Source of the DNA: Syntrophorhabdaceae bacterium
GTDB lineage: Bacteria > Desulfobacterota > Syntrophorhabdia > Syntrophorhabdales > Syntrophorhabdaceae
DNA: 64,000 bases
NCBI GenBank assembly: GCA_963665295.1
Contig: OY762209.1
Coordinates: 2,304,001 to 2,368,000, forward strand
Direction: 5' to 3'
The notes beneath the pieces were generated by a model. It searched no databases. It saw only the letters and a list, made by a program, of their open reading frames with translations, and was not told the DNA's origin. This document shows, piece by piece, positions 5,830 to 57,360 of the stretch; the stretch's first letter is position 1; each line of letters opens with the position of its first letter. A program made the translations under genes and the position numbers.

Positions 5830-5840
5830 AACGGTACACA

Positions 5841-6930: not shown

Positions 6931-6960
6931 ACGTCTATAGGTTCGGTCCGGGCTTGGGAT

Positions 6961-6999: not shown

Positions 7000-7021
7000 C
7001 AGGCAGGAAACGTGGGCTCTT

Positions 7022-40129: not shown

Positions 40130-40131
40130 CT

Positions 40132-41292
40132 ATGAAGGCACATATGGTAGAGGGGATTGAGTTTTCGGGGATAGCGGCGGGCGTCAAGAAGGCCGGCCTT
40201 GATCTGGGGTTGGCGTTCTTCGAAGAGCCCATGTATGTGTCGTCCCTTTACACGAAGAACCGCGTGAAGGCGGCCCACATCCTCTATAACCGGAAGCTGG
40301 AGTCGAAGCCCGTGAGGGCTGTCCTCGTAAACAGCGGGTGCGCGAATGCCTGCACCGGCAAAGACGGCATAGACGACCTCAAGGAGATCGGCGGGAAACT
40401 TTCCGCGCTCCTCAATGTGACGAGGGAAGAGATACTTTTCGCGTCCACCGGCGTGATCGGCAAGAGACTTCCCGGCGACACCATTGTGAGCGCCCTTCCT
40501 GCTGCGGTAAAGGACCTGAAAGAGGCCCATCTTGATGCGTTCTCCCGGGCGATCATGACCACGGACACATTTCCCAAGGTGGTGCATGAGACCTTCGAAG
40601 GGCGGAAGTCGTATAATATCGTAGGCATTGCAAAGGGCGCGGGCATGATAAACCCGCTCTTCGCCACCATGCTTGCCTTTGTATTCACCGATTTTCCCGT
40701 TTCCCCGGCCACGATACAGCGGTCTTTTGTCCACTCCGCAAGGGAGAGCTTCGAGAGAATATCCGTTGACGGCGAGTGTTCGACGAACGATTCCATCCTT
40801 CTTTTCACCCGTACGGGGGAAGAAGATGAAAGCGGCCTGAAGGGGTTTGAAGAGGGCCTTGCGACGGTCCTCAAAGAGCTTGCCATGATGGTCGTCAAGG
40901 ATGGGGAAGGCGCGACCCGCGTTGCCCATATTATCGTGAAAGGCGCGAAGAAGAAAGAACAGGCGGAAAAGATCGCGAGAAGGATTTCCATTTCGCCCCT
41001 CACCAAGACGGCATTTTTCGGTTCCGACCCCAACTGGGGCAGAATCATCGCGGCGACGGGCGACGCCGGTGTTCCGGTCACCCCATCGAAGATTGAAATC
41101 ACCCTGCAGGGACGGGTCCTCGCAAGGGGCGGCGTTGAAGTGCCCTTCGATGAGGAAGAAATGAAGAACCTCATGAGCACCAAGGAGATAGAAGTAATAG
41201 TGGACCTCCACGAGGGCAAGGCCGGGTTCGACATCTTCACGACGGACTACACCTACGACTACATAAAAATCAACGCGTCCTACCGGACATAG
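40132..41292 (+). CDS. argJ: Ornithine acetyltransferase / N-acetylglutamate synthase
   Basis: NSGCANACTG, STGVIG, IMTTDT, KGAGMI.P..ATML, STND, DGEGAT, DPNWGRI, INASYRT. Confidence 0.97.
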   Translation: MKAHMVEGIEFSGIAAGVKKAGLDLGLAFFEEPMYVSSLYTKNRVKAAHILYNRKLESKPVRAVLVNSGCANACTGKDGIDDLKEIGGKLSALLNVTREEILFASTGVIGKRLPGDTIVSALPAAVKDLKEAHLDAFSRAIMTTDTFPKVVHETFEGRKSYNIVGIAKGAGMINPLFATMLAFVFTDFPVSPATIQRSFVHSARESFERISVDGECSTNDSILLFTRTGEEDESGLKGFEEGLATVLKELAMMVVKDGEGATRVAHIIVKGAKKKEQAEKIARRISISPLTKTAFFGSDPNWGRIIAATGDAGVPVTPSKIEITLQGRVLARGGVEVPFDEEEMKNLMSTKEIEVIVDLHEGKAGFDIFTTDYTYDYIKINASYRT

Positions 41293-41553
41293 CCGATACT
41301 CTTCGGATCTTCTTTACCGACCGATAGCCCCGACAACGTGAAGACCGGAACCCGATTCCCGCGGATGCGGCGCATCATCATGAAGCGAACCGCGTAGGAC
41401 GGGACATGGCGAACCTCGGGATCAAAGGAACCGAAGACATCCCCCGGAGTCATATCCGATATCAACGTAGCGCGGAAAAACCTGCAAAAGATCTCAGGAG
41501 CGACGCCGATTTTCTTTAAAACCTCGTCGGCGGGCTGCTGTGTGTGGCGGGTG

Positions 41554-41742
41554 GGGAGAGCCCCTCTTTCACTCCCCCGTGCCAACGCTCCAGGCAGAGA
41601 AAACTTGGCGCGAAAATCCTTGGCGAATGCCACCCCCCATCCCCCTACAAATCAAGGGGGCTCTCTACCTCGCCAATGATTTTCGCTGAGTTTTCTTAGC
41701 TGCCTTCCACAATGCACGGGGGAGTGAAAGAGGGGTTCTCCC
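41554..41742. repeat. ~190-nt imperfect palindrome (MITE-like element or structured RNA)
   Basis: Outer arms 41554-41582 / 41714-41742 pair at 28 of 29 nt; inner arms 41592-41626 / 41670-41705; central CCCCCT-ACAAATC-AAGGGGG. Confidence 0.75.
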
Positions 41743-41847
41743 TCATGATAGTTCGAGAAGGCGCAGGGCGGGGAAAAGACATGAGACCGTGACCCGGGGG
41801 GAAGCGAAGCTGTCTGCAAGTTCCTGAAGGCGTGCCGCGTACCTCGC

Positions 41848-42138
41848 TCACTTAAAACCCTCTTCTTTGCGGTGGCGTATTCCGATAATGTGCACCGTGT
41901 CTTCTTCTATCCTGTACCGGGTAATAAAACTACCTGCCCCGAACGGAACGACAAGATCATGGAAGTCCGGGAGGGCTTCTACGGGATGGATGATATCCGG
42001 ATAATCCTGGAGTAGTTTGATTGTGTTTGTTATTGTCATGGCCGCCCTTCTTGCAGCCTCCGGGTTCTTGTCGCCGATAAAATCCCTCAACCTGCCGAGG
42101 TCATCAACGGCACGGTCGAGCCAGACTATTCTTCGCAC
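41848..42138 (-). CDS. RelE/ParE-family type II toxin
   Basis: IVW...A.DDL.RLRDFI..KNP.AA.R, PFG.G.F..RYR, IRH.KE; overlaps the antitoxin stop. Confidence 0.9.
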   Translation of the reverse strand: MRRIVWLDRAVDDLGRLRDFIGDKNPEAARRAAMTITNTIKLLQDYPDIIHPVEALPDFHDLVVPFGAGSFITRYRIEEDTVHIIGIRHRKEEGFK

Positions 42139-42407
42139 TCAGGCCTCTTTGTTTCTCCTTCATGCCCCCAGGTATCCAGCCAGGTCAGCACCGCTTCATT
42201 ACTTACATACTCGCCGTTGGTCTTGAATGTTTCCCAGCGGTCAAGGGTCTCTAAACGCAGTTTTTCCGCCTCTTCTTCTTTTTCTACATATTTGCTGATG
42301 GCTTCTTTCATCAGCCAATGAGGCGAGCGTCTCTTTGCCTCTGCGAGCCTTAATAAACGTGCCCTTATTTCCGGGTCTAGTTTGACTGCCATAGGGGTGG
42401 CGCCCAT
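42126..42407 (-). CDS. CopG/ribbon-helix-helix antitoxin
   Basis: VKLD..IR.RL..LA.AKRRSPHWLMKEAI..YV..EE...WL.TWG; GGAGG RBS. Confidence 0.88.
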   Translation of the reverse strand: MGATPMAVKLDPEIRARLLRLAEAKRRSPHWLMKEAISKYVEKEEEAEKLRLETLDRWETFKTNGEYVSNEAVLTWLDTWGHEGETKRPECEE

Positions 42408-42423
42408 AGTTGCACCTCCAGGG

Positions 42424-42438
42424 TATTACCTTGTAATA
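42424..42438. promoter_or_regulatory. Putative TA autoregulatory operator
   Basis: TATTAC-CTT-GTAATA palindrome just upstream of the antitoxin RBS. Confidence 0.5.
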
Positions 42439-42927
42439 ATATACTCACCGCAACGCGTCCTGCGCAAGGGTTTTCTGCAACCCTTTTTCCTGCATGGACT
42501 GCTCTGTTGTGAGGTGTGCGCCGGAATACGGCGAGCCATAGAAGAGGAGAAGCCCATCAACTACGAAGCCGAATTTGGCTACGACCCTGAAGCGAAAGAC
42601 GGAAGGCTCTATTAGCGCCCACTAAGACGAGCGATATCGAATGTTCGACCGGTAGGAAACCGGCAAATCGCAACCAAACTTCTAAAGATGAACGGTGCGG
42701 CGCAAATCTTCAACTCCTATCTTAAACAATTGCGCCGCCCTTGCCACCTGCAAAACAGTTGAAAGAGCGGGGCAACCCAAAAAGTCCGGAGTTCGTGCGG
42801 TCGATCGAAGGAAAAGTCGCACGGTATGGGTGCCTGGATATAGGCAGCACTGGAATATGCGGGATTTCTGCCGTATATTTGGCTATCCGACAGAGTCAGA
42901 AGGCAAAAACAAATAGGAGGCAGCACG

Positions 42928-43299
42928 ATGGTCCCGGAAAAACTGCTGGAAATCATGAAACAGGACGGGGTTGTCGCCATTGCGACATTGGGAGAAGATG
43001 GGCCGCATATGGTCAACACCTGGAACAGCTACATCAGAATATCACCGGACGGACGATTATTCATTCCTGCAGGTTACATGAATAAGACAGAGGCTAACGT
43101 TGCTTACAACCCCAATGTTCTGATTACGCTGGGAAGCAGCAAGGTTCAGGGCTTGCATGGAGCAGGCGCCGGTTTCTTAATCAAAGGAAAGGCCATGTTT
43201 ATCACGTCCGGACCTGATTTTGATTTTATGAAAGCAAAATTCACCTGGCTGCGAGCTACGTTGGCTGTCACCATCGAGTCTGCTACCCAAACCTGGTGA
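42928..43299 (+). CDS. FMN-binding protein (pyridoxamine 5'-phosphate oxidase-like split barrel)
   Basis: GVVAIAT.G.DGPH.VNTWNSY, PAG.M.KTEAN, TLGS.KV.G..G.G.GFLI.G; AGGAGG RBS. Confidence 0.9.
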   Translation: MVPEKLLEIMKQDGVVAIATLGEDGPHMVNTWNSYIRISPDGRLFIPAGYMNKTEANVAYNPNVLITLGSSKVQGLHGAGAGFLIKGKAMFITSGPDFDFMKAKFTWLRATLAVTIESATQTW

Positions 43300-43425
43300 A
43301 AGTTATGGAACAGTCTGAACATTGCAGTTTCGGGGCCGTGGCGATCAGGTGACAATGTTTATATACCTGCCCGGTAGACCGCGCGCTTAGCCCTCTTAAG
43401 GCCGAACACGCCTTTTTTCCGCAGA

Positions 43426-43498
43426 ATGAAACCGGTCTCCGGCTCACGTGCCGGTAGGACTACAAGGTCCGTGCCCATGAGCTGGAGACCGGTTTCAT
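43426..43498. repeat. Intergenic inverted repeat with 21-bp arms
   Basis: ATGAAACCGGTCTCCGGCTCA ... TGAGCTGGAGACCGGTTTCAT (20 of 21), inner GGAC-TACAAG-GTCC. Confidence 0.7.
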
Positions 43499-43721
43499 GG
43501 TTGTATGTCTGTGTTAATCTGGAGATACCATATTCGATGGCTCCTTCCTGTACCGGTCACCCTCGGTATTGACTTCCGGCACATGAGCCGCGTCCGGAAG
43601 TTTTGGCTTGATATTCCAAAGGGCATCGGGCACAATAGCGTGTGGACAACGGAGAACAACAGTTGCATTCCCCCGATTTTCACATCGGGAGAAATCGAAT
43701 GAAGAGGAGGGTTAAGGAGCA

Positions 43722-44843
43722 TTGAAAAGATTATGTGTTTTGGTTGCTTGTTGCGCTCTTTCCTTGGTACCGGCGTTCTTCTCGGGGATCGCTCTATCAG
43801 AAGACGCACAATCCCTTTCGGCGGTTTCCCAGGGCAGGTATAACCAATCAAGGGAAACGTCCTTTGTTAAGCCAGGGATCGAGTCGGTCTTTACCATGCC
43901 GGAGAACTGGCCCCGGAACAATGATGCCGCACCAACGAACAGAGCACCAAAAGAGGCAAAATCCTTCGCCATCGTCTTAGGGTCAGGCACGCCGGGTCCC
44001 AATCCTTACAGGATGGGTCCGTCCTTTGTGGTGATATCAAACGGTTACCCCTATTTCATTGATTGCGGAGAAGGAGCGTGGCGAAGCCTGGCGTCAACGT
44101 CGCTGGCTCATGGAGACTGGCTTACAAAATCCCTTGCTCTGGATAATTTCAAATACCTCTTTCTCACTCACCTGCACTGCGATCATACGGTCGGCATCCC
44201 TTCATGGATCTTGAACGCATATAAGTGGGGTTCGAAGGCGAGCAAAGAAATATACGGCCCGAAAGGAACCGCAGCCATGATGAAGAATATTATGGCCGCG
44301 TGGCAAATCGACATGGAGGACATGTGGTACGGACCATTGAAGACAAGCAACGACGGCGTCACAGTGGTCACCCATGAAGTGGATAATGACGGCCTGATAT
44401 ATCAGGATAAGAATGTGAAAGTCTATGGGTACCGGAAATATCACGGCTATTTAAAGGACAATTTTGCGTACCGCGTCGAATGTGCCGACGGCAGGGTTTT
44501 TGCTTTTGCCGGCGACGGCTGGAGCTGTCCAGGTCTTATCAAAGCGGCCAGGAATGCCGATGTCGTTTTCGTGGAGGTCTTTTCCATGGATAACATGGGC
44601 TATGCCTCGCGGGGGGCAAAGATAGACCTTGCAAAGGTTGAATATAATACACATGCCTACCACATGTGGCCCGAAGAACTGGCATTGATGCAGAAGGAAT
44701 CGGGTGTGAAGAGTCTGGTTCTGATTCACGAGCAAAATTATGCTCCCGCGGGTCAATATTCCCGCCTGGGGATGTGGGAAGAATGTAAACGGGCCGGTGT
44801 TAAGGAACCGGTATTTTCATCCGTCGATGGTGACATTTACTGA
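43722..44843 (+). CDS. Secreted MBL-fold metallohydrolase (RNase Z/arylsulfatase AtsA-like)
   Basis: Signal peptide; LGSGTP.P.P.R.GP, IDCGEG, THLHCDH, AGD, YH, LIH; AAGGAG before TTG. Confidence 0.85.
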   Translation: MKRLCVLVACCALSLVPAFFSGIALSEDAQSLSAVSQGRYNQSRETSFVKPGIESVFTMPENWPRNNDAAPTNRAPKEAKSFAIVLGSGTPGPNPYRMGPSFVVISNGYPYFIDCGEGAWRSLASTSLAHGDWLTKSLALDNFKYLFLTHLHCDHTVGIPSWILNAYKWGSKASKEIYGPKGTAAMMKNIMAAWQIDMEDMWYGPLKTSNDGVTVVTHEVDNDGLIYQDKNVKVYGYRKYHGYLKDNFAYRVECADGRVFAFAGDGWSCPGLIKAARNADVVFVEVFSMDNMGYASRGAKIDLAKVEYNTHAYHMWPEELALMQKESGVKSLVLIHEQNYAPAGQYSRLGMWEECKRAGVKEPVFSSVDGDIY

Positions 44844-44943
44844 AATTGGGGGGCGGATTGTCGCAGATGCCTTGCGCCCCAGGGAAACCCGTCCGGATGC
44901 CAAGGTATGCATTAAGACCGCCATGCGTCTTTCGGCATGGCCC

Positions 44944-47900
44944 TCAGTCCGGGTTGCCTACCAGGATGAAGGCGCCCCAGTAGAAGGGGTTGGGTTTCTT
45001 CTTCATGAGGTCCAGCTTTGCCTGTCTCAGGGAGTCGGCTTTTGATTTGCCGTCGGCCATGGCAGTGTAGAAGCCCGTCATGAGTTGCATGGTCTCCGCG
45101 CTCGGCACGCTCCAGAGGCTTAAAATCACCGCTTTTGCTCCCGAGAGTATGAATGCCCTCTTGAGGCCGAAGACGCCTTCTCCGCTCAGGACGTCGCCGA
45201 CCCCTGTCTCGCATGCCGACAGGACTACGAGGTCCGTGCCCATGAGCCGGAGGCCCATGAGCTTCTCTGCGCTCATTATGCCCTCATCTTTCCCTTCTTT
45301 CAAGGAGAGGTTGATGCGGGCGAGGGCAAGGCCCGACCGGAACATGGGACTCTCCCTGAGAAGTTTCTGATTGGAGTCCGATGCCCCTTTTTTCTCATCT
45401 TTTCCGATGAAATACCCGTGGGTCGCGAGGTGCATGATCCGTGGCGAGTCCGCGGAAAGGAGGACCGATTCCACCGCTTTCTCACCCTCGTAGCTGTTCA
45501 CGACGAGGTGCATTCTTTGGGTCAGGATGTTTTGAATGACGTCGGCCTCTTTTTTTGTATCGGGGAGTCGTGAAAAGAAGGTCAACCCGCTCGTCTTGGA
45601 AGGCGACGATGGTCCTGCGGCTTGAGACGACCGGTCCCTTTCCGCCTGTTTTTCCTGCGTGACGAGACCGAAATCGTAATCCGGGTCTGCGAGAATGAGC
45701 GCGGGAGGGCCGTCCTTCCGGGGCTCCTTATCTTCGAGCCTCACGATATCCCTGCCTGCCGCAATGTAGCTTATCCGGTACTTCTCGATGGGGTATGATC
45801 CTTCGGCGTTGAGGAGCGTTTCGAGGGGGATGAGGTTAAGGTTCCCGTCCGGGCTCACGAAGAGGCTCTCCTTGCCCGTGAGAAAGCCCTCCACGGGCTT
45901 GAGCACGAGACGGTAAAGCTCCCCTGCCTCTTTGTCGAGGATTCTCTTGTTGGGCACGTAGCCGGCCCTTGCGGCGCCCATCGCCTTCAGGTAGGCCCGT
46001 ACATGGAGGTCCACGTTTTCAGCCGGTCCGAGGTCTACGAGGGCAAGAAGTTGTTTTTCGCCCGGCCTCAGGACAAAGACAAGGTAACGGGGTTCCTTCC
46101 AGGAGGTTGTTTGATAGTCGAAGATGCTTATCCTCGCGAAATCGAGATAGACCGAATTGACGGGGAGTATTTTGGCGACCCGGGCCGTGTCCGCCCTCCC
46201 GGCCTTTCTTTCCACCGCAAAATCTTTGCTCACTGCCGAAAGCGCCGCTTCGAGGTCCTCCTTGCGTTTTTCCCGCGCCCCGAGGATATCCGAATTTTCC
46301 TTGAGGGTTGTTTCTGTCCAGCGCGAGTTCTGGAGCTTCGCGATCTCTCTTCTCGTCTTCGTCAATTCCTCAAAGAGGTCTTTGATCTTTGCGTTCCCTG
46401 ATGCGACGACCGCCTCAAGATGTTTGCCCTCTGCTTCCATCACTGCGCCTTTCCACTGGAGCCAGGCGTCAAGGGTTGTGGCGAGGGCCTGATCGTCGGA
46501 AGACAGATATAGGGCCGAATGGCCGACAAACTCGTGGAGGGAGAGTTCCGTTTCCTTCATGTAATTCAGCTTTTCCCGTTCCGACAAAAGGAGAAACACG
46601 TTATCACGTTTGACGCCGTCGATGCGCGCGCCCTGCGCGAAATAGCGATGGCTTTCGAGGTGTTTTCCCTGACAGGCGTAAAGAACGGCCAGTTCCTTTG
46701 CCGAGGACCCCACCTTCGGGTGGTTCCCGCCAAGGGTGTTGAGGCGTATGGTGTACGCCTTCAAAAGGTAATGACCCGCCTGATCATACCTGCCGGTGGA
46801 GCGGTACAGGACGCCGAGATTGTGCATGCTGTCGGCCACGAAGATGTGGTCCTTGCCGTAGACCTTCTCCCGTATCTCCAGGCCGGTCTTATATTGCTGT
46901 TCCGCGAGCAGGGGCTTGCCGGTAGCCATATTGAGACCGGCGAGGGTATCGAGGCTCTCGGCGATGTCGGGATGGTATTTGCCGAAGGCCTTCTCCCTGA
47001 TTTCCAGGGCCCTTCGAAAGCATGGCTCCGCTTCTTTCGTCGCCCCCCGGGACTGATAGAGGCTCCCGAGGAGGCTCAGGGTTTCCGCCACCTCAAGGTG
47101 GTCCTTGCCCAGGACCTTCTCCTGAATTTCAATTGCCTTCCTGTACTCCTGCCCGGCTTCGGCGGACCTTCCCGTGTTGAGGTACAGGTCGGCAAGGTCG
47201 ATCCGGCTGTCCGCCACCGCGGGATGCTCTTTTGAAAGGATCTTTTCGCGGATGCCGAGAACCCGCTTGCAGAGGGGCTCGGCCTCGGCGTACGCGCCCT
47301 TCGCGATGTAAATCTCCGCGAGGACCTGCATACTTCTCGCGGTTTCGACCTGTTCCTCGCCCAGTTTTTCCCGATTGATCTTTATGGCCTTGGAAACCAG
47401 CCTCTCCGCATCCTCGTATCTTCCCATATTGAGGTACAGACGGGCCAGGGAGGTCATGAGACGTGCTGTGCCGGGATGGTCCCGTCCCCTGGTCCGTTCC
47501 TGGATATCAAGGGCCTTGAGGTAAAGGGTCTCCGCTTCGCGATATTTGCCCATGGCTTCATAGAGCTCAGCCAGGGAACTTATGCTCCCCGCGTACCGCG
47601 GGTGGTCCGCGCCAAGTACCTTTTCCCGTATCTTCATCGACCTGGAAAGAAGCCGCTCCGCTTCCGAGTATCTTCCGAGGGTGATGTAAAGCCGGGCGAG
47701 GCCGCCCAGGCTCGCCGCTGTGTCCTGATGTTCGGGCACGAGTACCTTCTCCCTGATTTCAAGCCCCTTCTTAAGGTTGGTTTCCGCATCGGCATACCTG
47801 CCCGTGGCCAGGTAGAGAAGCCCCAGGGATGTGAGGCTCTGGGCTGTGAGAGGGTGCTCTTCGCCCAGCGCGGCCTGACGGATCTTCAGGGAATTCCGGA

Positions 47901-49965
47901 GCAGGATTTCCGCGTCCCCGTTCCTTCCTGTTGCCCGGTAAATGCCGCCAAGGAGCTGCATGGTATCCGCCACATCGGGGTGGTCCTTTCCCAGCTTTGA
48001 CTCCCTTATTCCAAGAGCCTGTTTCGAAAGCTGTTCCGCCTTCTCGTAGTTTCCCATGGCGCTATCGATGTCCGCGAGGGTATGGAGGTCGGCAGCCACC
48101 GCAGGATGTCCCGCGTCGTATTTGCTCCGGGTGATTTCGAGGGCCTCCGTTGCCATGGTCCGGGCTTCCGGGTATCGGGCCATTGTCCTGTAAAGGGACG
48201 CGAGGGACCTCAACGACTGGGCGACTTGAGGGTTGTCCTTGCCGAGCCTCGCCCTCCGGATCTCCAGGGATTTCCGGTAAAGCCGTTCAGCTTCGGCGTA
48301 ATTTCCCGTAAGTTCGTTGAATTCGGCCATGGCGCCCAGGCTTCGGGCATACTGGGGGCTCCCTGACCCGTCCGCGATCTCCCTCAGTTTGAGGGATTTC
48401 CTGAGCAACGGTTCCGCCTCGGCATATTTGCCCGACGCAAAGTACAGACGGGCAAGGAGGGCGGTGGTGGTCGCAATGTCCTGGTGGTCGGCGCTTAAGC
48501 GCCGCTGCCTGATGTCGAGGGCCCTTTTGTAGGCGGCTTCGGCTTCCCGGTATTTTCCCTGAGAGAAAAGGACCAGGCCCAGGGAGTTGAGGCTCTGGGC
48601 GACGTCCAGGTGATCTCCGCCGAATGCCTTTTCCCGTATCGCGAGGGCCCGTGCGTACATCTGTCTCGCTTCTTCGGGCCTGCCTTTTGTCTGGGCGATG
48701 CGGCCGAGGAGCATCAGACTTTCGGCAACATCAGGATGAGCGGGGCCCAACTTCTTCTCTCTCAGGGCGAGAGCCTTCTTGCCGAACAACTCGGACCTGT
48801 CGTACTCCCCCCGCGCGAGGGCCACCTCGGCCCGTATCTGCATGGTCGTTGCAGCGGCGGGGTTCTCCATATCGTTTCTCTTCTTGAGTATCTCGTCGAC
48901 GCGGTCGCAATAGGACTCGGACCGGTCGTACTTCGCCATGTTCTTGTAAAGCTCGGCAAGGGCGTTGAGGGACCTGATGATGCGGGGATGGTCTTTCCCC
49001 AGCCGCTGTTCCCTTATTTCGAGGGCCCTGAGATGCAACGACTCGGCCTCCGCATATCTGCCCGTGGTTTCATAAAGCTCGGCCATGGTGTAAAGATTCC
49101 CCGCGAGGGAGGAATGGTCTTTACCCAGGGCTTTTTCGCGAATCGTGATAGCCCTCTTGTAGAGCGACTCCGCCTCTGTGTAGTCGCCCGTTTTGGCGTA
49201 AAGGGCCGCGAGCATGCCGAGGCTCCGGCCGATTTCGGGATCGTCCATATCGAGGCTCTTTTCCCTGATCTCAAGGGCCTTTTTGAATTCCTCTTCAGCT
49301 TCTCCATAATTCCCGCGGATCGACGCGAGGAGACCGAGGCAGGAAAGGGCGGAGGCTGCGGAGGGCTGGTCGGGTCCGTCTTTCTTCAGGCTCATGTCCC
49401 GGGCGTTCCTGCAGTACCGATCCGCGTCGGCGTAACGGGAGGAGGAAAGGGCAATTCTTCCCAAGAGGGCCAGGGTTTCCGCGACTTCGGGGCTGTCCTT
49501 GCCGAATGCCCGCTCCCGGATGCCCCAGGCCCTCTTGGCATAGGACTCGGCCATGGTGTAGTTCCCCATGGCGTACTGTATGCGGGAGGAAAGGTAGAGG
49601 CTCGCCCCTACGTCGGCGTGGTCTCTTCCAAGGGTGCGGTTCCTTATCTCCAGGGCCTCGGCCGCCTTCCGGGAGGCGTCCTCGTATTTTTCCTCGGCGA
49701 GAAGGCCCGACGCCTCTTTCGCGAGGGAACCGGCGCGGACAAGGTCGCTTTCAGCGGCGGCTGCAATAGAAAGAGAGCAGGCGAGGAGAAGGACGGTCAG
49801 GGCAATGCAGACGAGATATCCGAACTTCCTGAGGCGCGGCCGCCTTCCTCCCCGAGAGAGCGGGAGGAAGGCGATACGTTCATTCAATGCAGCGTAATTT
49901 TGCGGGGTCGTTAACGGCAAACCCAGTCGCAGTGTCTGTGACGGCATACGTTCATCCACGTACAC
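44944..49965 (-). CDS. TPR-CHAT (clan CD caspase-like) protease with an N-terminal signal/TM segment and ~25 42-aa TPR units
   Basis: Hydrophobic YLVCIALTVLLLACSLSIAAAA; 25 kinesin-light-chain-like TPRs; CHAT motifs SPDGNLNLIP, HLATHG (His), VLSACETG (Cys), SLWSVP, PFYWGAF. Start uncertain (49965 GTG, 49947 ATG or 49887 TTG). Confidence 0.93.
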   Translation of the reverse strand: MYVDERMPSQTLRLGLPLTTPQNYAALNERIAFLPLSRGGRRPRLRKFGYLVCIALTVLLLACSLSIAAAAESDLVRAGSLAKEASGLLAEEKYEDASRKAAEALEIRNRTLGRDHADVGASLYLSSRIQYAMGNYTMAESYAKRAWGIRERAFGKDSPEVAETLALLGRIALSSSRYADADRYCRNARDMSLKKDGPDQPSAASALSCLGLLASIRGNYGEAEEEFKKALEIREKSLDMDDPEIGRSLGMLAALYAKTGDYTEAESLYKRAITIREKALGKDHSSLAGNLYTMAELYETTGRYAEAESLHLRALEIREQRLGKDHPRIIRSLNALAELYKNMAKYDRSESYCDRVDEILKKRNDMENPAAATTMQIRAEVALARGEYDRSELFGKKALALREKKLGPAHPDVAESLMLLGRIAQTKGRPEEARQMYARALAIREKAFGGDHLDVAQSLNSLGLVLFSQGKYREAEAAYKRALDIRQRRLSADHQDIATTTALLARLYFASGKYAEAEPLLRKSLKLREIADGSGSPQYARSLGAMAEFNELTGNYAEAERLYRKSLEIRRARLGKDNPQVAQSLRSLASLYRTMARYPEARTMATEALEITRSKYDAGHPAVAADLHTLADIDSAMGNYEKAEQLSKQALGIRESKLGKDHPDVADTMQLLGGIYRATGRNGDAEILLRNSLKIRQAALGEEHPLTAQSLTSLGLLYLATGRYADAETNLKKGLEIREKVLVPEHQDTAASLGGLARLYITLGRYSEAERLLSRSMKIREKVLGADHPRYAGSISSLAELYEAMGKYREAETLYLKALDIQERTRGRDHPGTARLMTSLARLYLNMGRYEDAERLVSKAIKINREKLGEEQVETARSMQVLAEIYIAKGAYAEAEPLCKRVLGIREKILSKEHPAVADSRIDLADLYLNTGRSAEAGQEYRKAIEIQEKVLGKDHLEVAETLSLLGSLYQSRGATKEAEPCFRRALEIREKAFGKYHPDIAESLDTLAGLNMATGKPLLAEQQYKTGLEIREKVYGKDHIFVADSMHNLGVLYRSTGRYDQAGHYLLKAYTIRLNTLGGNHPKVGSSAKELAVLYACQGKHLESHRYFAQGARIDGVKRDNVFLLLSEREKLNYMKETELSLHEFVGHSALYLSSDDQALATTLDAWLQWKGAVMEAEGKHLEAVVASGNAKIKDLFEELTKTRREIAKLQNSRWTETTLKENSDILGAREKRKEDLEAALSAVSKDFAVERKAGRADTARVAKILPVNSVYLDFARISIFDYQTTSWKEPRYLVFVLRPGEKQLLALVDLGPAENVDLHVRAYLKAMGAARAGYVPNKRILDKEAGELYRLVLKPVEGFLTGKESLFVSPDGNLNLIPLETLLNAEGSYPIEKYRISYIAAGRDIVRLEDKEPRKDGPPALILADPDYDFGLVTQEKQAERDRSSQAAGPSSPSKTSGLTFFSRLPDTKKEADVIQNILTQRMHLVVNSYEGEKAVESVLLSADSPRIMHLATHGYFIGKDEKKGASDSNQKLLRESPMFRSGLALARINLSLKEGKDEGIMSAEKLMGLRLMGTDLVVLSACETGVGDVLSGEGVFGLKRAFILSGAKAVILSLWSVPSAETMQLMTGFYTAMADGKSKADSLRQAKLDLMKKKPNPFYWGAFILVGNPD

Positions 49966-50429
49966 TCATAGTGTCTCCGGTGGTGGGGCCGATCGTAATA
50001 ACCGTAATCGTGGCCGCGGCCATGACCTCTCACCTCGGTCTTCTGTGGGGGTTCCTGTACCTTTGCGATTACCGCAAGGAGTTCGTCGTCGCCCGCGGCG
50101 AACTGTTTCGCTTCATCCAGCAATGCTACGCGATCATAGCGGGTGACCGTTTTTTCGTCCTTGCCGGGTTTTGCGATGCCGGCGAAGGGAAGGTCATCGA
50201 GGAGTTTCACGGCGGTGAGGATAACCAGAGGGTCTTTCTGGGCTTCGCCATATGAGACTACCTGGTAAAAGAGACCGACTTTCTTGGAGAATTCGGCTGA
50301 CTCCTTGGGGTCCAACGTCTTCGTTGCCGTCGGTTTTGTGTCCGGTTTCTTCTCCTGGGCCCAAACCGCGGTGAAAGAGACGGCGCACATGAAAACCATT
50401 AACCAAACAATGCATACAGCCTTTTTCAT
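49911..50429 (-). CDS. Secreted 172-aa protein with a helical body and His/Arg/Cys-rich C-terminal tail
   Basis: AAGGAGGT RBS before ATG 50429; signal peptide ending AVWA|Q; tail after TEVR|G has 7 His, 7 Arg and 4 Cys. Confidence 0.85.
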   Translation of the reverse strand: MKKAVCIVWLMVFMCAVSFTAVWAQEKKPDTKPTATKTLDPKESAEFSKKVGLFYQVVSYGEAQKDPLVILTAVKLLDDLPFAGIAKPGKDEKTVTRYDRVALLDEAKQFAAGDDELLAVIAKVQEPPQKTEVRGHGRGHDYGYYDRPHHRRHYECTWMNVCRHRHCDWVCR

Positions 50430-50727
50430 AAATAGTACCTCCTTGTGTGGATATATATGACCCCATCGAGCCACTGTTCATCGTAAGGGTCCGGCGGGAA
50501 ATGTCTTCCGCCGAACGGGCCATCCCCCGGAACTCAAGGCGACGGATGCGACGTGGGAGCCTCCATTAATTGTTTCATGATTTTATCAGGCCCCCCCAAG
50601 AGCGCGTTACGCTCTATTCTGATATGGTAGACGCAGATTGTCAATAAATTTCTGAGACTGGCCATGAAATATGAATAATTGACGATAGTTAGCGATACCG
50701 GTGGACGATTTCCGATCACGGGCCCCT

Positions 50728-51453
50728 TTATGTCCGCCTATTCACCCCGGACTCTTCGGCTCCCGCGAGTTTTGCGATCCGTTCCCTTACCTCGATCATC
50801 AGCCGGGTCCGGGCGGACCTGTCTTTTTCCTTCACGTGCACGGGTTCGCCGATCTTTATCTGTATAAGCCCCTTGGCCTTGGGGACAAAGCAACCTTCCG
50901 GCTGCAACCGGCCCGTCCCTCCTATCCCCACGGGTATTATGGGGACCCCTGTACGGAGGGCAAGGGAAAAACCGCCGTTCTTGAAAGGCAGGAGTGTGCC
51001 GTCTTTGCTCCACGTCCCTTCGGGGAATATTACGATGTTCATGCCCTCCCTGACTTTGCGGGCTGCTTCGTTGATCGCCTGGAGAGCCTTGCGGGGATTT
51101 TTCCGGTCCATGGCGATGTTCTTTCCTATCTTAAGCGCCCATCCGAGAAAGGGCACAAAGAAAAGCTCCTTCTTCGCGATCCACTTGAAGGACAGGCGAA
51201 GCGACGAGAGAAGGGCGAATATGTCGAGGGCGCTCTGGTGGTTGCACATGAATATGTAGGGGGGCTCGGATATGTTCTCCAGACCCTCCAGAGATACCCG
51301 GATGCCGCAGGCCTTGAGGTGGACTCTGGCCCATACCCTGCCCAGCCTGTTGACTCTTTCCCCTTTCGAGTCAAAAGGGAAGAGCATCAGGGCGAGGACG
51401 GAAAGGGACATTGTAGTGAGGATGAGGGTAACTATGGGGATGGCCTTCTTCAC
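50728..51453 (-). CDS. plsC: 1-acyl-sn-glycerol-3-phosphate acyltransferase
   Basis: NHQSALD, AKKEL..P.LGW, FPEGT, PFKNGGF; GTG start with GGAGG. Confidence 0.92.
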   Translation of the reverse strand: MKKAIPIVTLILTTMSLSVLALMLFPFDSKGERVNRLGRVWARVHLKACGIRVSLEGLENISEPPYIFMCNHQSALDIFALLSSLRLSFKWIAKKELFFVPFLGWALKIGKNIAMDRKNPRKALQAINEAARKVREGMNIVIFPEGTWSKDGTLLPFKNGGFSLALRTGVPIIPVGIGGTGRLQPEGCFVPKAKGLIQIKIGEPVHVKEKDRSARTRLMIEVRERIAKLAGAEESGVNRRT

Positions 51454-51700
51454 GGGCGTCGATGCCTCCAGGTGATTATAACCTTATTGACAATTTATTT
51501 GTAGTCGTACCAGGGGAAAAATAGTCCCGCCCCGAAGAAACAGGGCTCCGTGACGGCCCGTCGAGAGGCGTGGACCGGTCCTTGCTGTTATGATGCCGGA
51601 CAAGGGGATCGGCAAAAAAGAAATGGTTATACGGCTGCAATTGTGATAAATGATTGACAGGGCGTTTTGCGCACCACACTGCTTTCAAGGGGGTCTATCC

Positions 51701-52294
51701 ATGGAACGACTGGTGGAAAGGGTAAAGGCAATTATCTTCAATCCGAAGCAGACATGGGAGACGATAAAGGGCGAGAAGACCACGGTGAAGGACCTCTATA
51801 CCTCGTATGGAGCGATTCTTGCCATTATCCCTCCTGTGGCGTCCTTCATAGGATTGTCCCTGGTAGGGTTGAACATGCCCGTTCTCGGCCGGTGGAGACA
51901 GCCCATTATGAACGGCATCAGCCACGCAATACTCTTCTATATTCTCTCCCTCGCGGGCACATTCGTCACCGCTTACGTGGCCGACGCGATCGCGCCTTCC
52001 TTCGGATCAAAGAAGAACTTTACGGGGGCCGTGAAGGCTGTGGTGTACTCCTATACGCCCACCTGGGTCATAGGCGTGTTCAATATTATCCCCGCTTTCA
52101 GCGGCATCGTGTGGATAGGGAGCCTCTATTCCCTCTATCTCCTCTATCTCGGTCTTCCTGCGATGATGGAGACTTCTCCTGAGAAGAAGTCCGCTTACGT
52201 GGCGATAGTGGTGGTTTCCACCCTCCTCGTGATGTTCGCCATCTCTCTCATTGCAGGACTGTTTCTCGCGAGCATGCAGGCAGTGAGACACTGA
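51701..52294 (+). CDS. Yip1-family membrane protein
   Basis: RVKAII..P..TW..I..E, LA.IP, AP.FG, YSYTP.W, LYSLYLLYLGLP. Confidence 0.85.
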   Translation: MERLVERVKAIIFNPKQTWETIKGEKTTVKDLYTSYGAILAIIPPVASFIGLSLVGLNMPVLGRWRQPIMNGISHAILFYILSLAGTFVTAYVADAIAPSFGSKKNFTGAVKAVVYSYTPTWVIGVFNIIPAFSGIVWIGSLYSLYLLYLGLPAMMETSPEKKSAYVAIVVVSTLLVMFAISLIAGLFLASMQAVRH

Positions 52295-52368
52295 CCGGCC
52301 CGGTGAATGCCCCCCTGTTACGACAGGAAGGGCGGCGACGGTTCCGGGGACTCGCCCGGGAGGAAGCT

Positions 52369-52769
52369 ATGACTCCACAGGCAAAGATCGGCTCGGCGAT
52401 TCTTGTATATGACGCCCTTTTCGCCTTGACCTTGCGCCGTACAGGATTAAGGACTCGGAATGGGCACTGGGCGTCAGGTATCGCTGGGGCTATCAGGGCA
52501 GGGTCACCGAGACCCTGTTTCTCTTCAGGCGCGTGGAGGGAAAACTGACAAAGATCTTCGAGAGCGACGTCGAAATGTATGATAAGCAGAAGGAATACAA
52601 GTCAATCCTGGTCGTGGCCGGAGAGAAGACCCAGGGGCTTTATGACCTTGTAAAGAAGACCAGGATAACCGGGATAGGGTCAGGCGAGGAGGATGGGCAG
52701 TCAACAACCGAGCAGACGACGTTCAGGTGGGACGGCCGGGAGTACGTCCGGGAGGATGCGCGGAAATAG
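52369..52769 (+). pseudogene. Frameshifted or internally deleted gene for a secreted protein (resembles PA3715-like proteins)
   Basis: GGAGGA plus ATG 52369 (MTPQAKIGSAILV) in one frame; a different frame, open 52413-52769, reads FRLDLAPYRIKDSEWALGVR...ETLFLFRRVEGKL...FRWDGREY. Confidence 0.55.
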
Positions 52770-52976
52770 GCCGACACGGGGCTCATGGCAAAAGGGCCGA
52801 CACCTTCTTCCTGCCTGTTTCTTTCAGGCCGGGCGTTTCTCCGGCAGACCGCGAGCGCTTCCCCTTGTCTCAAAGCTGACGGCACGAACCATGGATGATG
52901 GCATGTTGTGGCGTCGGCCGGTTCGCTCCGCTCTTTGGATCGGATCCCCCCCGAAAAGGGTTCCCGGGGGCGGGCA

Positions 52977-54002
52977 TCATTCCGGCAACAGGCTCCAGGG
53001 GTTGACCCCGTCCCTCCATATGGTTATTTTCCCGCTGTCGTCGCCGGATGCCAGCACCTTGCCGTCCGGCCCGAAAGTCAGGAAATTCACGGGGCTATTC
53101 CCGTGACTGAGCATCTTCCTCCGGAAAGGGGTTTTGGTCTCCCAGAGATCGATCCGCCCGTTATGGTATGACGAGGCGAGTGTCTTCCCGTCGGCGGCGT
53201 ATTTAAGGGAGAGCACTACCGACCGTTGGGTGGTGGGTATCAGTTTTGACATATCTGCGGTAGCCACATCCCAGAGCACGATATTGGGAAAATTGCCGCC
53301 TGACGCGAGGACCTTGTTGTCCGGCCCAAAATCGATAGAACAAACCCGACGGGAACGGCTGTCAAGGGTGGCTACCCTGTTTCCCGTGAACGGGTCCCAC
53401 ATAATAACCAGCCTGTCATCGGATCCCGAGGCCAGCAGTTTGCCGTCCCCGCTGAATACGACGCTATTGACGCCCCGGCTGTGACCTTTGAGTTCTCTTA
53501 CCTTCTGCCATGTCGTAGTATCCCACAGAATGATGCGGGAGTCGGCGCCGGCCGATGCGAGGAGCCTCCCGTCTGGAGAGAAGGCGAGAGAACCGAGCTG
53601 ATCGGAGCCGGAGCCGAACTGGAGGGTTTTGGTCTGTTTCCATGTCGTAGTATCCCACAGAATGATGCGGGAGTCGGTGCCGCCCGATGCGAGGAGTCTC
53701 CCGTCAGGAGAGAAGACTACTGAATTAACCGCTCCTTTCTTCACCCAGCCTCCCCCTGCCTCGATATCGCCATGACCCTTGAGGCCGGCAAGTTTCTTCC
53801 CTGTAGCGGCATCCCAGACCTCAACGCTCAACGCGTTGTGTCCCGACGCGAGGAACCTGCCATCGGGACTGAAGGCGAGCGAGTTCACCCCTGCCCCGGA
53901 AGCTATCTCGATCTTTCCCTGGTTTGTGTCGGCCCGGCCGTGAGGTATTGCGACGGATGATACGGCAATGAAGAGGGCAACGAAAAGCATCAACTTTTTC
54001 AC
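52977..54002 (-). CDS. Secreted 7-bladed WD40 repeat protein
   Basis: Signal peptide MKKLMLFVALFIAVSSVA; seven SxxFSPDGxxLASG....I.LWD units; GGGAGG before GTG. Confidence 0.9.
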   Translation of the reverse strand: MKKLMLFVALFIAVSSVAIPHGRADTNQGKIEIASGAGVNSLAFSPDGRFLASGHNALSVEVWDAATGKKLAGLKGHGDIEAGGGWVKKGAVNSVVFSPDGRLLASGGTDSRIILWDTTTWKQTKTLQFGSGSDQLGSLAFSPDGRLLASAGADSRIILWDTTTWQKVRELKGHSRGVNSVVFSGDGKLLASGSDDRLVIMWDPFTGNRVATLDSRSRRVCSIDFGPDNKVLASGGNFPNIVLWDVATADMSKLIPTTQRSVVLSLKYAADGKTLASSYHNGRIDLWETKTPFRRKMLSHGNSPVNFLTFGPDGKVLASGDDSGKITIWRDGVNPWSLLPE

Positions 54003-54247
54003 AACGAAACCTCCCGGATCGATTTTCTTCTCTGTAGCGTGATAAGGGGCGTCTTCCGGCGCGCAGTCAGGTTAAACTTCCTCTTGAAATTCTCTAAGAT
54101 AGTTTTTACATGAATACTGCAGGAAAGTCAAAGAACATTGCCGGGTTTGGCTTTGTCCCGTGACGCTTGCCTCCCGATTGACAATTATGCGAGTCAGGCT
54201 ATACTTTCAGAATAGTGCCTCAAATTCTTCATACCGGGGGGTCGATC

Positions 54248-55033
54248 ATGATCAAGAGGGAGGGCGTGTACAGGTTTCTTGAAGGCAAAAAGGGTTTGAT
54301 CCTGGGCATTGCCAATGAGAGAAGCATCGCCTACGGGTGCGCGGAGGTGTTTCGTCTCCTTGGCGCAGACCTGGCGGTCACCTATTCGAACGAGAAGTCG
54401 GAGCCATTCGTGAAACCCCTTGCGGAGGAACTGGGGGCTCCCATCTTCGCGAAGTGCGACGTCGAAGTCCCGGACCAGTTAGAGACGGTCTTCGGGAAGG
54501 TCGGTCAGGTGTGGGGGAAGCTTGACTTTGTGCTCCACGCGATCGCCTATGCCCCCAAGGAAGACCTGCACGGCAGGGTAACGGACTGTTCAAGGGAAGG
54601 GTTCCTGCAGGCCATGGCGACTTCATGCTACTCTCTCATCCATACGGTGAGGCTTGCCGAGCCCCTCATGACAGGGGGCGGTTCCATTCTCACCGTTACC
54701 TATTATGGCGCGGAAAAGGTAGTGGCGAATTATAACGTCATGGGCCCCGTGAAAGCGGCCCTCGAAAGCAGTGTACGCTATATGGCCGCGGAACTTGGCC
54801 CGAAGATGATCCGGGTAAACTCTCTTTCCCCCGGGCCCATAGCAACGAGGGCAGCGTCGGGTATCGACCATTTCGATGCCCTCATGGAGCGCGCTACGGA
54901 ACTGGCCCCCGAACATCACCTCGTATCCATTGAAGATGTGGGTGCTTTTGCGGCTTTTCTCGTGAGCGACGCCGCAAAGAGCATCACAGGCGCAGTCCAT
55001 TATATCGACGGAGGATACCACATAGTCGCGTAG
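54248..55033 (+). CDS. fabI: Enoyl-ACP reductase FabI
   Basis: GIANERSIAYG, TYYGAEKVV.NYNVMGPVKAALES, SPGPI.TRAASGI. Confidence 0.95.
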   Translation: MIKREGVYRFLEGKKGLILGIANERSIAYGCAEVFRLLGADLAVTYSNEKSEPFVKPLAEELGAPIFAKCDVEVPDQLETVFGKVGQVWGKLDFVLHAIAYAPKEDLHGRVTDCSREGFLQAMATSCYSLIHTVRLAEPLMTGGGSILTVTYYGAEKVVANYNVMGPVKAALESSVRYMAAELGPKMIRVNSLSPGPIATRAASGIDHFDALMERATELAPEHHLVSIEDVGAFAAFLVSDAAKSITGAVHYIDGGYHIVA

Positions 55034-55121
55034 GAGGAGTCCGGCGGCGGGTGGTGTATATCAGGAGAACCTTCTATTCAATACCCCCCACTGATTATGC
55101 GTCGCGGGTCACTCCGGAAGC

Positions 55122-56495
55122 TCAACCCTCGGGCAGCACTTCAAGGGAAAAGTACGCGTGAACTTCCGTACCCTTTCCCGCCTGAGATTCAAAGGCCAGA
55201 CGTCCGCCTGCAAGGGCCGCGCGCTCCTGCATGCCGAGTATGCCGAAGCTCCGGCCTTTGAGCGCGTTTCCGCGCATCTTCTCTACGTCGAAGCCGGTCC
55301 CGTCGTCCTTCACGGTAAGGTGGAGCTCTCCGTCGTGTTCGGCGAGGTCGACACGCACGTTCCGCGCTCCCGAGTGGCGGACTACGTTGGTGAGGGCTTC
55401 CTGCACGATGCGGAAACATGTCACTTCAATGAGGGGCGAGAGCCGTTCTTCCGTGAACTTCGTGTGAAAGGTGCCGGTGAAGCCGGCCCTCTCCGCGAGC
55501 CAGTTTATATACCATTCCAATGCCGCGACGAGGCCGAAATCGTCCAGGATCGAGGGGAGCAACTCGATGGACATGTTGCGGATCTGTTTGATAAGCCCTT
55601 CCACGATCTTCAGGTTTTCATCTACTATCTCCGGTGTTGACCTGGCCGTCTTCGACCGTTGAATGCGCTTGAGGCCGATCCTGAGTGCGGTGAGGCTCTG
55701 ACCTATCTCGTCGTGAAGTTCCCTTGCGATATTCCGGCGTTCGATCTCCTGCACTTCGAGAAGGCGATGCGACAGGGCCCTCAGTTGGGCGGTCGTGGCC
55801 TGCAGTTGTTCGTTGGTCTTTCTCGCGGCGTCTGTGCGCTTCTTTACAAGCTCTTCGAGATGGCCCCGGTATTTGTTCAGTTTTTTCTCTGTCTTCTTGT
55901 GCTCCCGTATTTCCCGGCCCAGTTCCTGGTTTGTCCTGACCAGTTCGCCGGTCCGTTCTTCGAGTCGTTCGTATGCGGCCTTCAACGCCGTCTCAGCGTT
56001 CCTTAACCCTGTAAAATCCGTCACGGAGAGGACATACCCCTTTGCGGGGTCGTTGTGATCGAGAGGGCGGCTGTTCGCGAGAACGGGGATGCGGTTTCCG
56101 TTCTTATGCAGCAGGTCATGCTCATATGAGGATAGCCTGTTTTTTTGGGGGGAACCATTCGAAATTGCCTCTTGAACCTTGAAGTATGCTTCGGTATCGG
56201 GATATATGAGCCTGATCGTCCTGCCGATCAATTCATCCTGGCCCCTGCCCAGGATGTCGGTGAAGGCGCGGTTGCACCAGACGAAGGCATCGTTCCTGAT
56301 GAGGCTGAGACCGTGGGACGAACTGCTCAGGACCGCAACGAGCAGGTCCTGGGATTGTTTGACTTTCTCGTGGGCCACCGCGAGTTCTTCCGCCTGGTCC
56401 CGGGCGTCCTCGAGGTTAAAGATATACTCCTGAAGAAGCCGGCGCTGCCGTTCGTCGTGATTTGTGTTCGTATCGCTCACAGAACGTCTCCTCAC
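55122..56495 (-). CDS. PAS sensor histidine kinase, HisKA_3 (NarX/UhpB-type)
   Basis: PAS, coiled coil, IARELHDEIGQ, QEALTNVVRHS, DDGTGF, FGILGMQER. Confidence 0.92.
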   Translation of the reverse strand: MRRRSVSDTNTNHDERQRRLLQEYIFNLEDARDQAEELAVAHEKVKQSQDLLVAVLSSSSHGLSLIRNDAFVWCNRAFTDILGRGQDELIGRTIRLIYPDTEAYFKVQEAISNGSPQKNRLSSYEHDLLHKNGNRIPVLANSRPLDHNDPAKGYVLSVTDFTGLRNAETALKAAYERLEERTGELVRTNQELGREIREHKKTEKKLNKYRGHLEELVKKRTDAARKTNEQLQATTAQLRALSHRLLEVQEIERRNIARELHDEIGQSLTALRIGLKRIQRSKTARSTPEIVDENLKIVEGLIKQIRNMSIELLPSILDDFGLVAALEWYINWLAERAGFTGTFHTKFTEERLSPLIEVTCFRIVQEALTNVVRHSGARNVRVDLAEHDGELHLTVKDDGTGFDVEKMRGNALKGRSFGILGMQERAALAGGRLAFESQAGKGTEVHAYFSLEVLPEG

Positions 56496-56950
56496 GAAGT
56501 AAGATAGGGATGGGGTCTTGCCCGGAGACTTGCGGCGGAAAGCCGAGTTTACCCTCTGTGGGACAGATTATCATTTCTTTATTTGTTTTTTCCAGTTCAA
56601 TCTGCCGCGGAACATGATCTTTCTCCGCGGACCGGGAGGAACCTGTATGATCCATGGCCTGCCGGCGTCCCCCGAAGGCACCGACATGGCGTGCGATCAG
56701 GCCTGAATCCATGGCGCGGCGGATTTGACATGGGGTACGAAACAAGGTATAGTTGGAGCTTCGTGAGGTTCAAGGCCCGGTCGCCCGGAAGGGCAGGGTC
56801 CTTCGAAATTGCCGCCCTGAGTCACCATCGGATATCGCTGCTTCTCCAGTACTCACATTGACAGGCAATTCCCGGAAGAACTGATGAAACCCGTCCGGAC
56901 CCTTAATATCGCGTTTCTCACGGAGTAGAGGACGGTCGGGGTGGAGGATT

Positions 56951-57301
56951 ATGAAGGCGATGAAAAAGATTCAGAATATAGCGGCCTTTGTCGAGTTTTT
57001 CACGGGGTCCGGGCTTGCCGTTTTCTTTCATCTGGTGCTCCATCACGAACAGGGGGCCTATATTATTTTCGGCATCGGTATACTTCTTTCTTTGAGCACG
57101 TATCTCCTCAGAGAGGATAACGAGACAACAAGGGATGTCCTTTTGGATCAATATCACAAGGCCCATGAGACCACTTTCATGATCGCCGGGATTGCCGATC
57201 GGGAATGCCAGGCGAAGGCCCATGACCATGTGGCCCACGCTGTTGCGTTGCAGGACGACATGGTCATTCCCACTGTGCCCGTCACCCACGGCTCCCCGTG
57301 A
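56951..57301 (+). CDS. Hypothetical two-TM membrane protein, possibly 3'-truncated
   Basis: GGAGG RBS; two hydrophobic segments then a helical region; upstream TTGACA/TATAGT promoter near 56726-56753. Confidence 0.55.
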   Translation: MKAMKKIQNIAAFVEFFTGSGLAVFFHLVLHHEQGAYIIFGIGILLSLSTYLLREDNETTRDVLLDQYHKAHETTFMIAGIADRECQAKAHDHVAHAVALQDDMVIPTVPVTHGSP

Positions 57302-57360
57302 CCGGCGAGAACCCCCGCGGGCGGCGAAGCGTTTGAACCCCGACCCGGAGGGATAGGCAA

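Follow-up and report, generated by a model that had tools for sequence, protein, structure and literature searches.

A predicted exported TPR-CHAT protease and an adjacent protein with a proposed helical leader form a conserved two-gene module in a Syntrophorhabdaceae genome

A 64,000-nucleotide stretch of the genome of a Syntrophorhabdaceae bacterium (GenBank assembly GCA_963665295.1, contig OY762209.1, positions 2,304,001 to 2,368,000; hereafter the window) carries two overlapping genes, one encoding a small protein of 172 residues (P0001) and the other a tetratricopeptide repeat (TPR)-CHAT protease of 1673 residues (P0002). The pair is a real and conserved module, apparently undescribed, and constitutes a variant of the theme in which a clan CD protease is accompanied by a neighboring substrate. 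We give an even chance to a mechanism in which the helical domain of P0001 guides the adjacent TPR-CHAT protein to cut after Arg134, whereupon an exported tail peptide would be released. According to this scheme, both proteins would be exported, the TPR-CHAT protein would likely bind the precursor through its helical domain, and cleavage by P0002 after Arg134 would likely yield a His/Arg-rich peptide of 38 residues, with a hairpin predicted to be held by disulfide bonds. As a folded leader, the helical domain would confer specificity, as Csx30 does for Csx29; once released, the tail would most probably serve as a signal. Members of the wider family sit in islands of extracytoplasmic function (ECF) sigma, anti-sigma, caspase and trypsin-like genes, of which the window lineage keeps the two-gene core only. 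The features of the pair are as follows; coordinates are positions in the window, and both genes lie on the minus strand.

49911..50429, minus strand: small precursor-like gene P0001, 172 amino acids (open reading frame 50429 to 49911; 30 further relatives).
50438..50443, minus strand: Shine-Dalgarno sequence AGGAGG of the small gene, 9 nt 5′ of the ATG.
50358..50429, minus strand: predicted Sec signal peptide, residues 1-24, ending AVWA (hydropathy 2.46 at residues 4-22; Ala24 nearly invariant).
50055..50309, minus strand: helical domain, residues 41-125 (AlphaFold2 predicted local distance difference test, pLDDT, 74-94 in blocks 41-130; profile common to PPC-, CFI-box- and short-tail relatives).
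50028..50054, minus strand: linker, residues 126-134, EPPQKTEVR, with invariant Arg134 (31/31) as predicted P1 residue.
49914..50027, minus strand: 38-residue tail, a disordered Gly/His/Tyr/Arg stretch followed by a four-Cys beta-hairpin (49917-49964; hairpin pattern in 25/31 relatives).
44944..49965, minus strand: TPR-CHAT protease gene P0002, 1673 amino acids, GTG start at 49965; the only intact CHAT gene of the 5.5-Mb genome.
49759..49815, minus strand: hydrophobic export/anchor segment, residues 51-69, followed by AAA|ES (hydropathy 2.64; same arrangement in the partners at L009-L018).
46588..49737, minus strand: about 25 kinesin-light-chain-type 42-residue TPR repeats (24 in register at residues 119-1126, preceded by one degenerate repeat).
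44953..45930, minus strand: CHAT domain (Pfam PF12770) with Glu1473 (45547-45549), His1516 (45418-45420) and Cys1585 (45211-45213).

Export signals on both proteins were judged from hydropathy and motif. In P0001, the hydrophobic stretch at residues 4-22 is followed by AVWA|Q, and TEVR|G occupies residues 131-135. The AlphaFold2 model, built on a 31-sequence alignment (mean pLDDT 70.9), predicts confident helices over residues 41-125, a disordered stretch covering 134-154 and, over 158-171, a beta-hairpin. A reading of the DNA made without database searches (the sequence-only reading) had proposed a signal peptide, a helical body of about 110 residues, the TEVR|G junction and a 38-residue tail; signal peptide, junction and tail stand, whereas the predicted body covers only residues 41-125. 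The tail comprises 7 His, 7 Arg, 4 Cys, 4 Tyr and 2 Trp. P0001 belongs to no significant Pfam or NCBIfam family, Foldseek returned zero matches at E 0.001, and a wide structural search gave generic helical or TPR-like matches only (best Z 7.9); a single unnamed Atlas cluster was matched (0.77), and for the tail no solved relative was found in the structure search. These model-based searches are evidence for neither a new fold nor kinship. Tachyplesin-type hairpin antimicrobial peptides were considered as a possible likeness of the tail; their Cys spacing differs, and no likeness is claimed. Contigs from two studies match the window base for base over the whole stretch and may be the source of its DNA.

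The protease is recognized by the Pfam CHAT profile over residues 1346-1671 (E 1.6e-66, 225 bits against a cut-off of 24), and the 25 best of its 31 Pfam families are CHAT and helical-repeat families, with no SAVED domain among those 25. His1516 and Cys1585 lie within HLATHG and LSACET, respectively, and both residues, as well as Glu1473, are invariant in the CHAT alignments (A6 and A7). By position, Glu1473 would open helix alpha1, the place of the S1 Asp in gingipain R and MALT1, and would thus fit an acidic S1 pocket like that of Arg-specific clan CD proteases. Only residues 856-1673 were folded, alone and in complex; the model (pLDDT 85) matches the folds of Csx29 (8eey_B, the top Foldseek match, E 1.9e-15), separase and DdvA (8rot), and separase was not reached by profile searches of the PDB. 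A conserved autocleavage Arg in the CHAT loop, common in the CHATs linked to PPC-type relatives described below, is not present in the close family. The hydrophobic segment at residues 51-69 belongs to P0002 whichever start is used, because no ATG, GTG or TTG occurs between codons 28 and 90, and it therefore lies within the real CHAT reading frame, as the sequence-only reading had required. Its picture of two abutting or overlapping co-directional genes with export-type hydrophobic N-termini, the second encoding about 25 TPRs and an intact His/Cys dyad, is likewise borne out. The genes overlap by 55 nt, or by 37 nt if P0002 starts at the ATG of codon 7; the 55-nt overlap is particular to the window lineage, most relatives having a gap between the genes.

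The close family of P0001 comprises 31 sequences from a protein search, the query included, three of which are named by their sources as Syntrophus or Syntrophobacteraceae proteins. An unrelated low-complexity protein, L007/L013 (E 6.8e-4), was dropped, and the analysis made no use of P0046, P0047 or the fragments P0043, P0044 and P0051. Val133-Arg134 is invariant (31/31). With a mean conservation of 0.83, the linker 126-134 exceeds every other segment of the family, the helical body (0.76) included, and the tail (0.6) is among the least conserved: 25 tails carry the four-Cys hairpin, four have no cysteines, one has two, and one is replaced by a CFI-box-CTERM domain. The residue after Arg134 is Gly in 22 sequences, His in five, Tyr in two and Arg or Ser in one each. 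A conserved RG had been anticipated; the Arg is indeed fixed, the Gly is not, and a basic junction is kept in the PPC and short-tail branches of the wider family.

Gene linkage was followed in 11 loci (L numbers; genomes carry G numbers) besides the window. A full TPR-CHAT gene is next to the small gene in six of them (L010, L011, L012, L014, L015 and L016), two tandem small genes preceding it at L014; the TPR gene is truncated by the contig end in three (L009, L017, L018), and L019 is uninformative. The close family is rare, occurring in 4 of 401 genomes of a phylum sample. Among 96 genomes of the order, the small gene was found in six, and the same six hold a CHAT of at least 65% identity, the next best CHAT being 50% identical; two of the six have these genes truncated at contig ends. 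The close-family loci examined hold no caspase, and none was found in G001 (100% complete) or G025 (97%), both of which carry the pair. These absences, the standing of the CHAT as the sole linked protease and the position of the invariant Glu1473 speak for the CHAT as the enzyme in the window lineage.

Binding of the two proteins is weakly supported by the predicted complex of P0002 residues 856-1673 with P0001 residues 36-172, which scored 0.33 against 0.01 for the best of three controls, with agreement between runs on at least 0% of contacts and a partner pLDDT of at least 62. Of 157 solved complexes, 116 reach the mark set for this score, as do 2 of 215 mismatches; with values of no more than 0.60, however, only 18 of the solved complexes do so, together with both mismatches. 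Weak binding support of this kind fits a substrate and an inhibitor alike. P0001 might be an inhibitor or bait, the helical domain docking and the Arg linker filling the active site in the manner of securin with separase or PCi with PCaspase, and any cut being slow or serving to release inhibition. A linker more conserved than the folded body would suit such a role, as would the fact that caspase-like operons do encode cleavable inhibitors (PCi) and the multiple small-gene copies at L014, L055, L059, L062 and L115. However, tails spanning short peptides to whole domains, as well as a four-Cys hairpin kept in 25 of 31 relatives, would be needless for a pure inhibitor, and a sister clade of CHATs exists without any such partner. 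We consider an inhibitor unlikely.

Evidence for a cleavable precursor comes from the wider family. An exhaustive profile search found the helical domain also ahead of short Trp/Tyr/Cys peptides and of a PPC-like beta domain, and the domain belongs to a wider unnamed family with interchangeable cargoes, namely a PPC-like domain, CFI-box-CTERM and short peptides. The sequence-only reading had suggested that a similar helical domain occurs with other C-terminal cargoes near caspase or CHAT genes, and these relatives confirm it. The CFI-box-CTERM cargo (NF041770) of P0023 and P0035 scores 91.5 and 85.7 bits against a cut-off of 40; the PPC profile (PF04151) matched one of six proteins at E 0.02, below its cut-off, and the Atlas clusters are named PPC-like at 0.95-0.96. 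Longer fusions of the helical domain were not found by the search, which is weak evidence. At the junction column of the PPC-type proteins (n = 90), Arg occurs in 86 and Lys in four, the next residue is Gly in 87, and the preceding six positions are variable; thinning to 60% identity leaves RG or KG in 42 of 44. In the short-tail relatives, Arg or Lys stands directly before the tail in 16 of 16, as judged by eye. A basic residue fixed at the domain boundary ahead of unrelated cargoes looks, from these alignments, like a cleavage site. The same residue could also serve as a contact residue if P0001 were an uncut binding partner or allosteric activator. The variable residue after Arg in the close family and the retention of RGAVGGP as a block in the PPC branch would agree with this, but the basic residue recurs at the same boundary before unrelated tails and within a segment predicted to be disordered; an uncut partner seems to us quite improbable.

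The cleavage mechanism also receives support from gene neighborhoods. A PPC-branch scan of 185,579 genomes gave 176 matches, of which the best 80, close kin included, were taken as loci; they derive mostly from Pseudomonadota and Bacteroidota, with some Spirochaetia, and the helical domain is present in all 80. By our own profiles, 70 of the 80 have a CHAT or caspase gene no more than 8 kb away (CHAT 40, caspase 51), as do 45 of the 47 loci with both flanks of at least 5 kb. Of 91 CHAT/caspase domains, 87 were submitted to a Pfam check and 86 confirmed, which leaves 69 of the 80 loci; together with the six of 11 close loci, the predicted linkage of homologues to CHAT or caspase genes is upheld. 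Linkage in the PPC branch is far above chance: G428, G430, G431 and G432 have all their CHAT and caspase genes gathered within about 20 kb of the helical gene. A fifth genome counted, G429, has 25 CHAT/caspase matches spread over many contigs. Crude hydropathy reveals an N-terminal hydrophobic stretch in most CHATs (43 of 49), caspases (37 of 50) and helical proteins (80 of 87), compared with 221 of 740 control open reading frames. ECF sigma factors recur as neighbors, in clusters of 18 and 8 loci, and so do probable anti-sigmas and a protein cluster including trypsin-like proteases. A scan free of PPC bias, using the helical-domain profile on two phylum samples with the centers excluded, matched 5 genomes among 400 in one sample and 2 among 300 in the other. 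In six of the eight gene clusters obtained, a CHAT or caspase gene lies no more than 10 kb away; a seventh cluster is close to a contig edge, and the eighth (L128) has neither protease nor RG. L115 holds three helical-leader genes in tandem, their short tails differing from one another and each preceded by a KSK-type basic junction. Sigma, probable anti-sigma, caspase and TPR-CHAT genes follow, the last two being the only caspase and CHAT of that genome. Among plasmid genes, one of PPC type adjoins a caspase gene in the vicinity of CHAT and trypsin genes, and one with a short tail has an unconfirmed caspase remnant only.

Several island types were observed alongside. The L115 island (2414-10668), with its ECF sigma in the operon and a CHASE2 gene upstream, is the clearest example of polymorphic cargoes. 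L053, L086, L093, L100 and related loci combine an exported trypsin-like protease, a helical-PPC protein, one or two TPR-CHATs, a caspase, an ECF sigma and a probable anti-sigma, and look like an exported multi-protease cascade. A Bacteroidales variant (L044, L050, L074, L080, L104) has the helical-PPC gene beside several CHATs and genes that were labeled, from sequence, as kinase-like and FHA-like.

A further explanation assigns the cut to another Arg/Lys-specific exported protease, an orthocaspase or trypsin-like enzyme, with the TPR-CHAT acting as upstream activator or as a receptor that binds the freed peptide via its kinesin-light-chain-like TPRs. In the PPC branch the identity of the enzyme is ambiguous, since caspases (51/80) outnumber CHATs (40/80) and a protein cluster including trypsin-like proteases is represented in 33 of 90 loci. 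Moreover, a SAVED-CHAT activates PCaspase (10.1101/2023.06.23.546230), characterized CHAT sites do not follow Arg, and the window genome (G000) encodes an exported WD40-caspase elsewhere. On the other hand, the close-family loci examined lack a caspase, as do G001 and G025 by our searches, and the trypsin cluster takes in none of L008-L019. We hold another enzyme to be improbable. The caspase just mentioned, the only one of its genome (G000:C1:162291-167279, about 1000 residues), lies far from the pair and faces two small secreted-type genes; a VRD motif is found in its linker.

Besides the ambiguity over the enzyme in the PPC branch, further observations weigh against cleavage of P0001 by P0002. 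The sequence-only reading had presumed that a CHAT protease would cut after Arg, a premise that is not supported: in the sources cited, Craspase cuts at L|D, M|K and A|S, with Leu, Met or Ala at P1 (PMC11106740; 10.1101/2022.08.17.504292), and the Runella CHAT at L|G, with Leu at P1 (10.1101/2021.06.07.447441). The latter paper also reports that the Runella enzyme requires Gly at P1′, which counts in favor of the proposed cut. P0002 reads WSVPS where most PPC-linked CHATs read WxVxD, the Asp being replaced by Ser, as it likewise is in Csx29. No ECF sigma was found near the pair in the window. In the PPC branch, RG may instead belong to RGAVGGP, the conserved opening of the PPC domain. As to linkage, L008 is a solo small gene, whose genome holds the pair elsewhere; neither L028 nor L103 has a protease within 8 kb, L128 lacks both a protease and RG, and all that L122 offers is a caspase-like remnant left unconfirmed by Pfam. 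Thirteen other relatives have the CHAT without the small gene, and no helical-domain gene was found beside the sister clade of exported TPR-CHATs (11 matches at 47-50% identity), either in the three loci fetched or in those genomes. WSVPS was rejected as a marker of the paired CHAT clade because this unpaired sister clade has it as well. The sister proteins (G1143:C7, G1152:C10, G1148:C1, G1144; L141-L145) are shorter exported TPR-CHATs of 900-1200 residues from one genus, with up to seven matches per genome.

Other features near the pair are given below.

50616..50644, minus strand: sigma-70-like promoter match TTGACA-17-CAGAAT upstream of the pair, a 10/12 consensus match only (8 such sites found, 3.8 expected by chance).
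43390..43490, minus strand: decayed 101-bp copy of the CHAT catalytic-Cys region, Cys lost (76% DNA identity).

The decayed copy and the intact gene are separated by a metallo-beta-lactamase-fold gene with a hydrophobic N-terminus (43722-44843). The neighbors within 38000-58000 include SecA and ArgJ (both labels read from the sequence), the metallo-beta-lactamase-fold protein, an acyltransferase, Yip1 and WD40 proteins. The WD40 protein, of 341 residues with a signal-peptide-like N-terminus (52977-54002, minus strand), is encoded 2.5 kb upstream of the pair, and two small overlapping genes at 41848-42407 (minus strand) presumably encode a RelE/ParE-type toxin and a ribbon-helix-helix antitoxin. 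In a related locus, a 260-residue gene directly 3′ of the TPR-CHAT gene (L011:13896-14678) has an N-terminus reminiscent of gasdermin/MACPF-like proteins, but no sequence match was obtained from Pfam, NCBIfam or the PDB.

Bacterial genomes commonly encode exported TPR-CHAT and caspase-like proteases, for which our literature searches found no extracytoplasmic substrate described. Nor did these searches, whose coverage is partial and may miss a mention, return any account of the helical-leader family or of a separate precursor for an exported CHAT; the accessible part of PMC8195603 contains nothing on the family. The pair offers a minimal two-gene system in which the substrate and the one bond to be cut are both predicted, the unnamed helical domain marks protease islands in several phyla, and the family points to a new source of small cysteine-hairpin peptides. 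We attach somewhat less than even credence to a broader proposal, namely a widespread and undescribed bacterial 'prohormone convertase' system, in which the helical leader would deliver interchangeable cargoes (disulfide hairpin peptides, polymorphic short peptides, PPC-like domains and CFI-box anchors) to exported caspase-like proteases that cut at a basic residue, the resulting extracellular signals feeding ECF sigma switches.

Among known systems, type III-E Craspase shares the TPR-CHAT fold of Csx29 and a neighboring substrate, Csx30, that has a conserved helical N-domain, a variable C-domain and structure-based recognition (10.1101/2022.08.17.504292; PMC11106740). In contrast to the pair, with its predicted export signals and a predicted conserved Arg site, Craspase is cytoplasmic and RNA-activated via Cas7-11. 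Its protease has no export signal, whereas P0002 has the hydrophobic segment 51-69, which is kept in the TPR-CHAT partners at L009-L018; P0001 matches no known family, and no genes for Cas7-11, Csx30, Csx31 or RpoE were found among the neighbors in 38000-58000 of this locus. In Runella, a CHAT adjacent to a bacterial gasdermin trims a short C-terminal peptide and needs Gly at P1′, but P1 there is Leu, cleavage yields the pore-forming N-domain, and export is not described in the accessible text (10.1101/2021.06.07.447441). P0001 itself was ruled out as a gasdermin, being a small helical bundle without a Pfam match. The Haliangium ochraceum SAVED-CHAT/PCaspase/PCi/PCc-sigma cascade resembles the PPC-type and L115 islands in that CHAT, caspase, sigma and a small cleavable partner are clustered; that cascade is located in the cytoplasm and responds to cyclic triadenylate (cA3) via SAVED (10.1101/2023.06.23.546230), whereas SAVED domain, caspase and sigma are all absent from the window locus.

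DdvA/DdvS of Myxococcus xanthus is the one characterized extracytoplasmic TPR-CHAT found, and shows that a periplasmic TPR-CHAT is not unprecedented. DdvA is, however, a transmembrane anti-sigma proposed to be itself the target, and a separate precursor is not described in the part of the source available (PMC11506125). In P0002, about 50 residues precede the hydrophobic segment, with no Cys or His among them and no cytoplasmic zinc anti-sigma domain, and no sigma gene lies beside the pair. Separase, with Scc1 and securin, likewise combines helical repeats with a clan CD domain, cuts after Arg and has a bound inhibitor, but it is eukaryotic and intracellular and recognizes (D/E)xxR (PMC4626109), whereas the window linker reads KTEVR and the Glu two positions before Arg is not conserved. 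ECF54 neighborhoods of Actinobacteria have an ECF sigma beside a TPR-CHAT and another protease; they belong to a different phylum, have different partners and, in the accessible text, no mention of a helical-leader precursor (PMC7826278).

Leader-core precursors of the type known from ribosomally synthesized and post-translationally modified peptides (RiPPs) consist of a conserved leader, a cleavage motif and a variable core. The helical-leader family has all three elements of this layout, the cleavage motif being putative, but no RiPP-like modifying enzyme or dedicated transporter recurs in the 90 loci. Although the pair falls outside each of the known systems compared, by analogy it would work like Csx29-Csx30 and CHAT-gasdermin, in which the protease is served by an adjacent, dedicated substrate.

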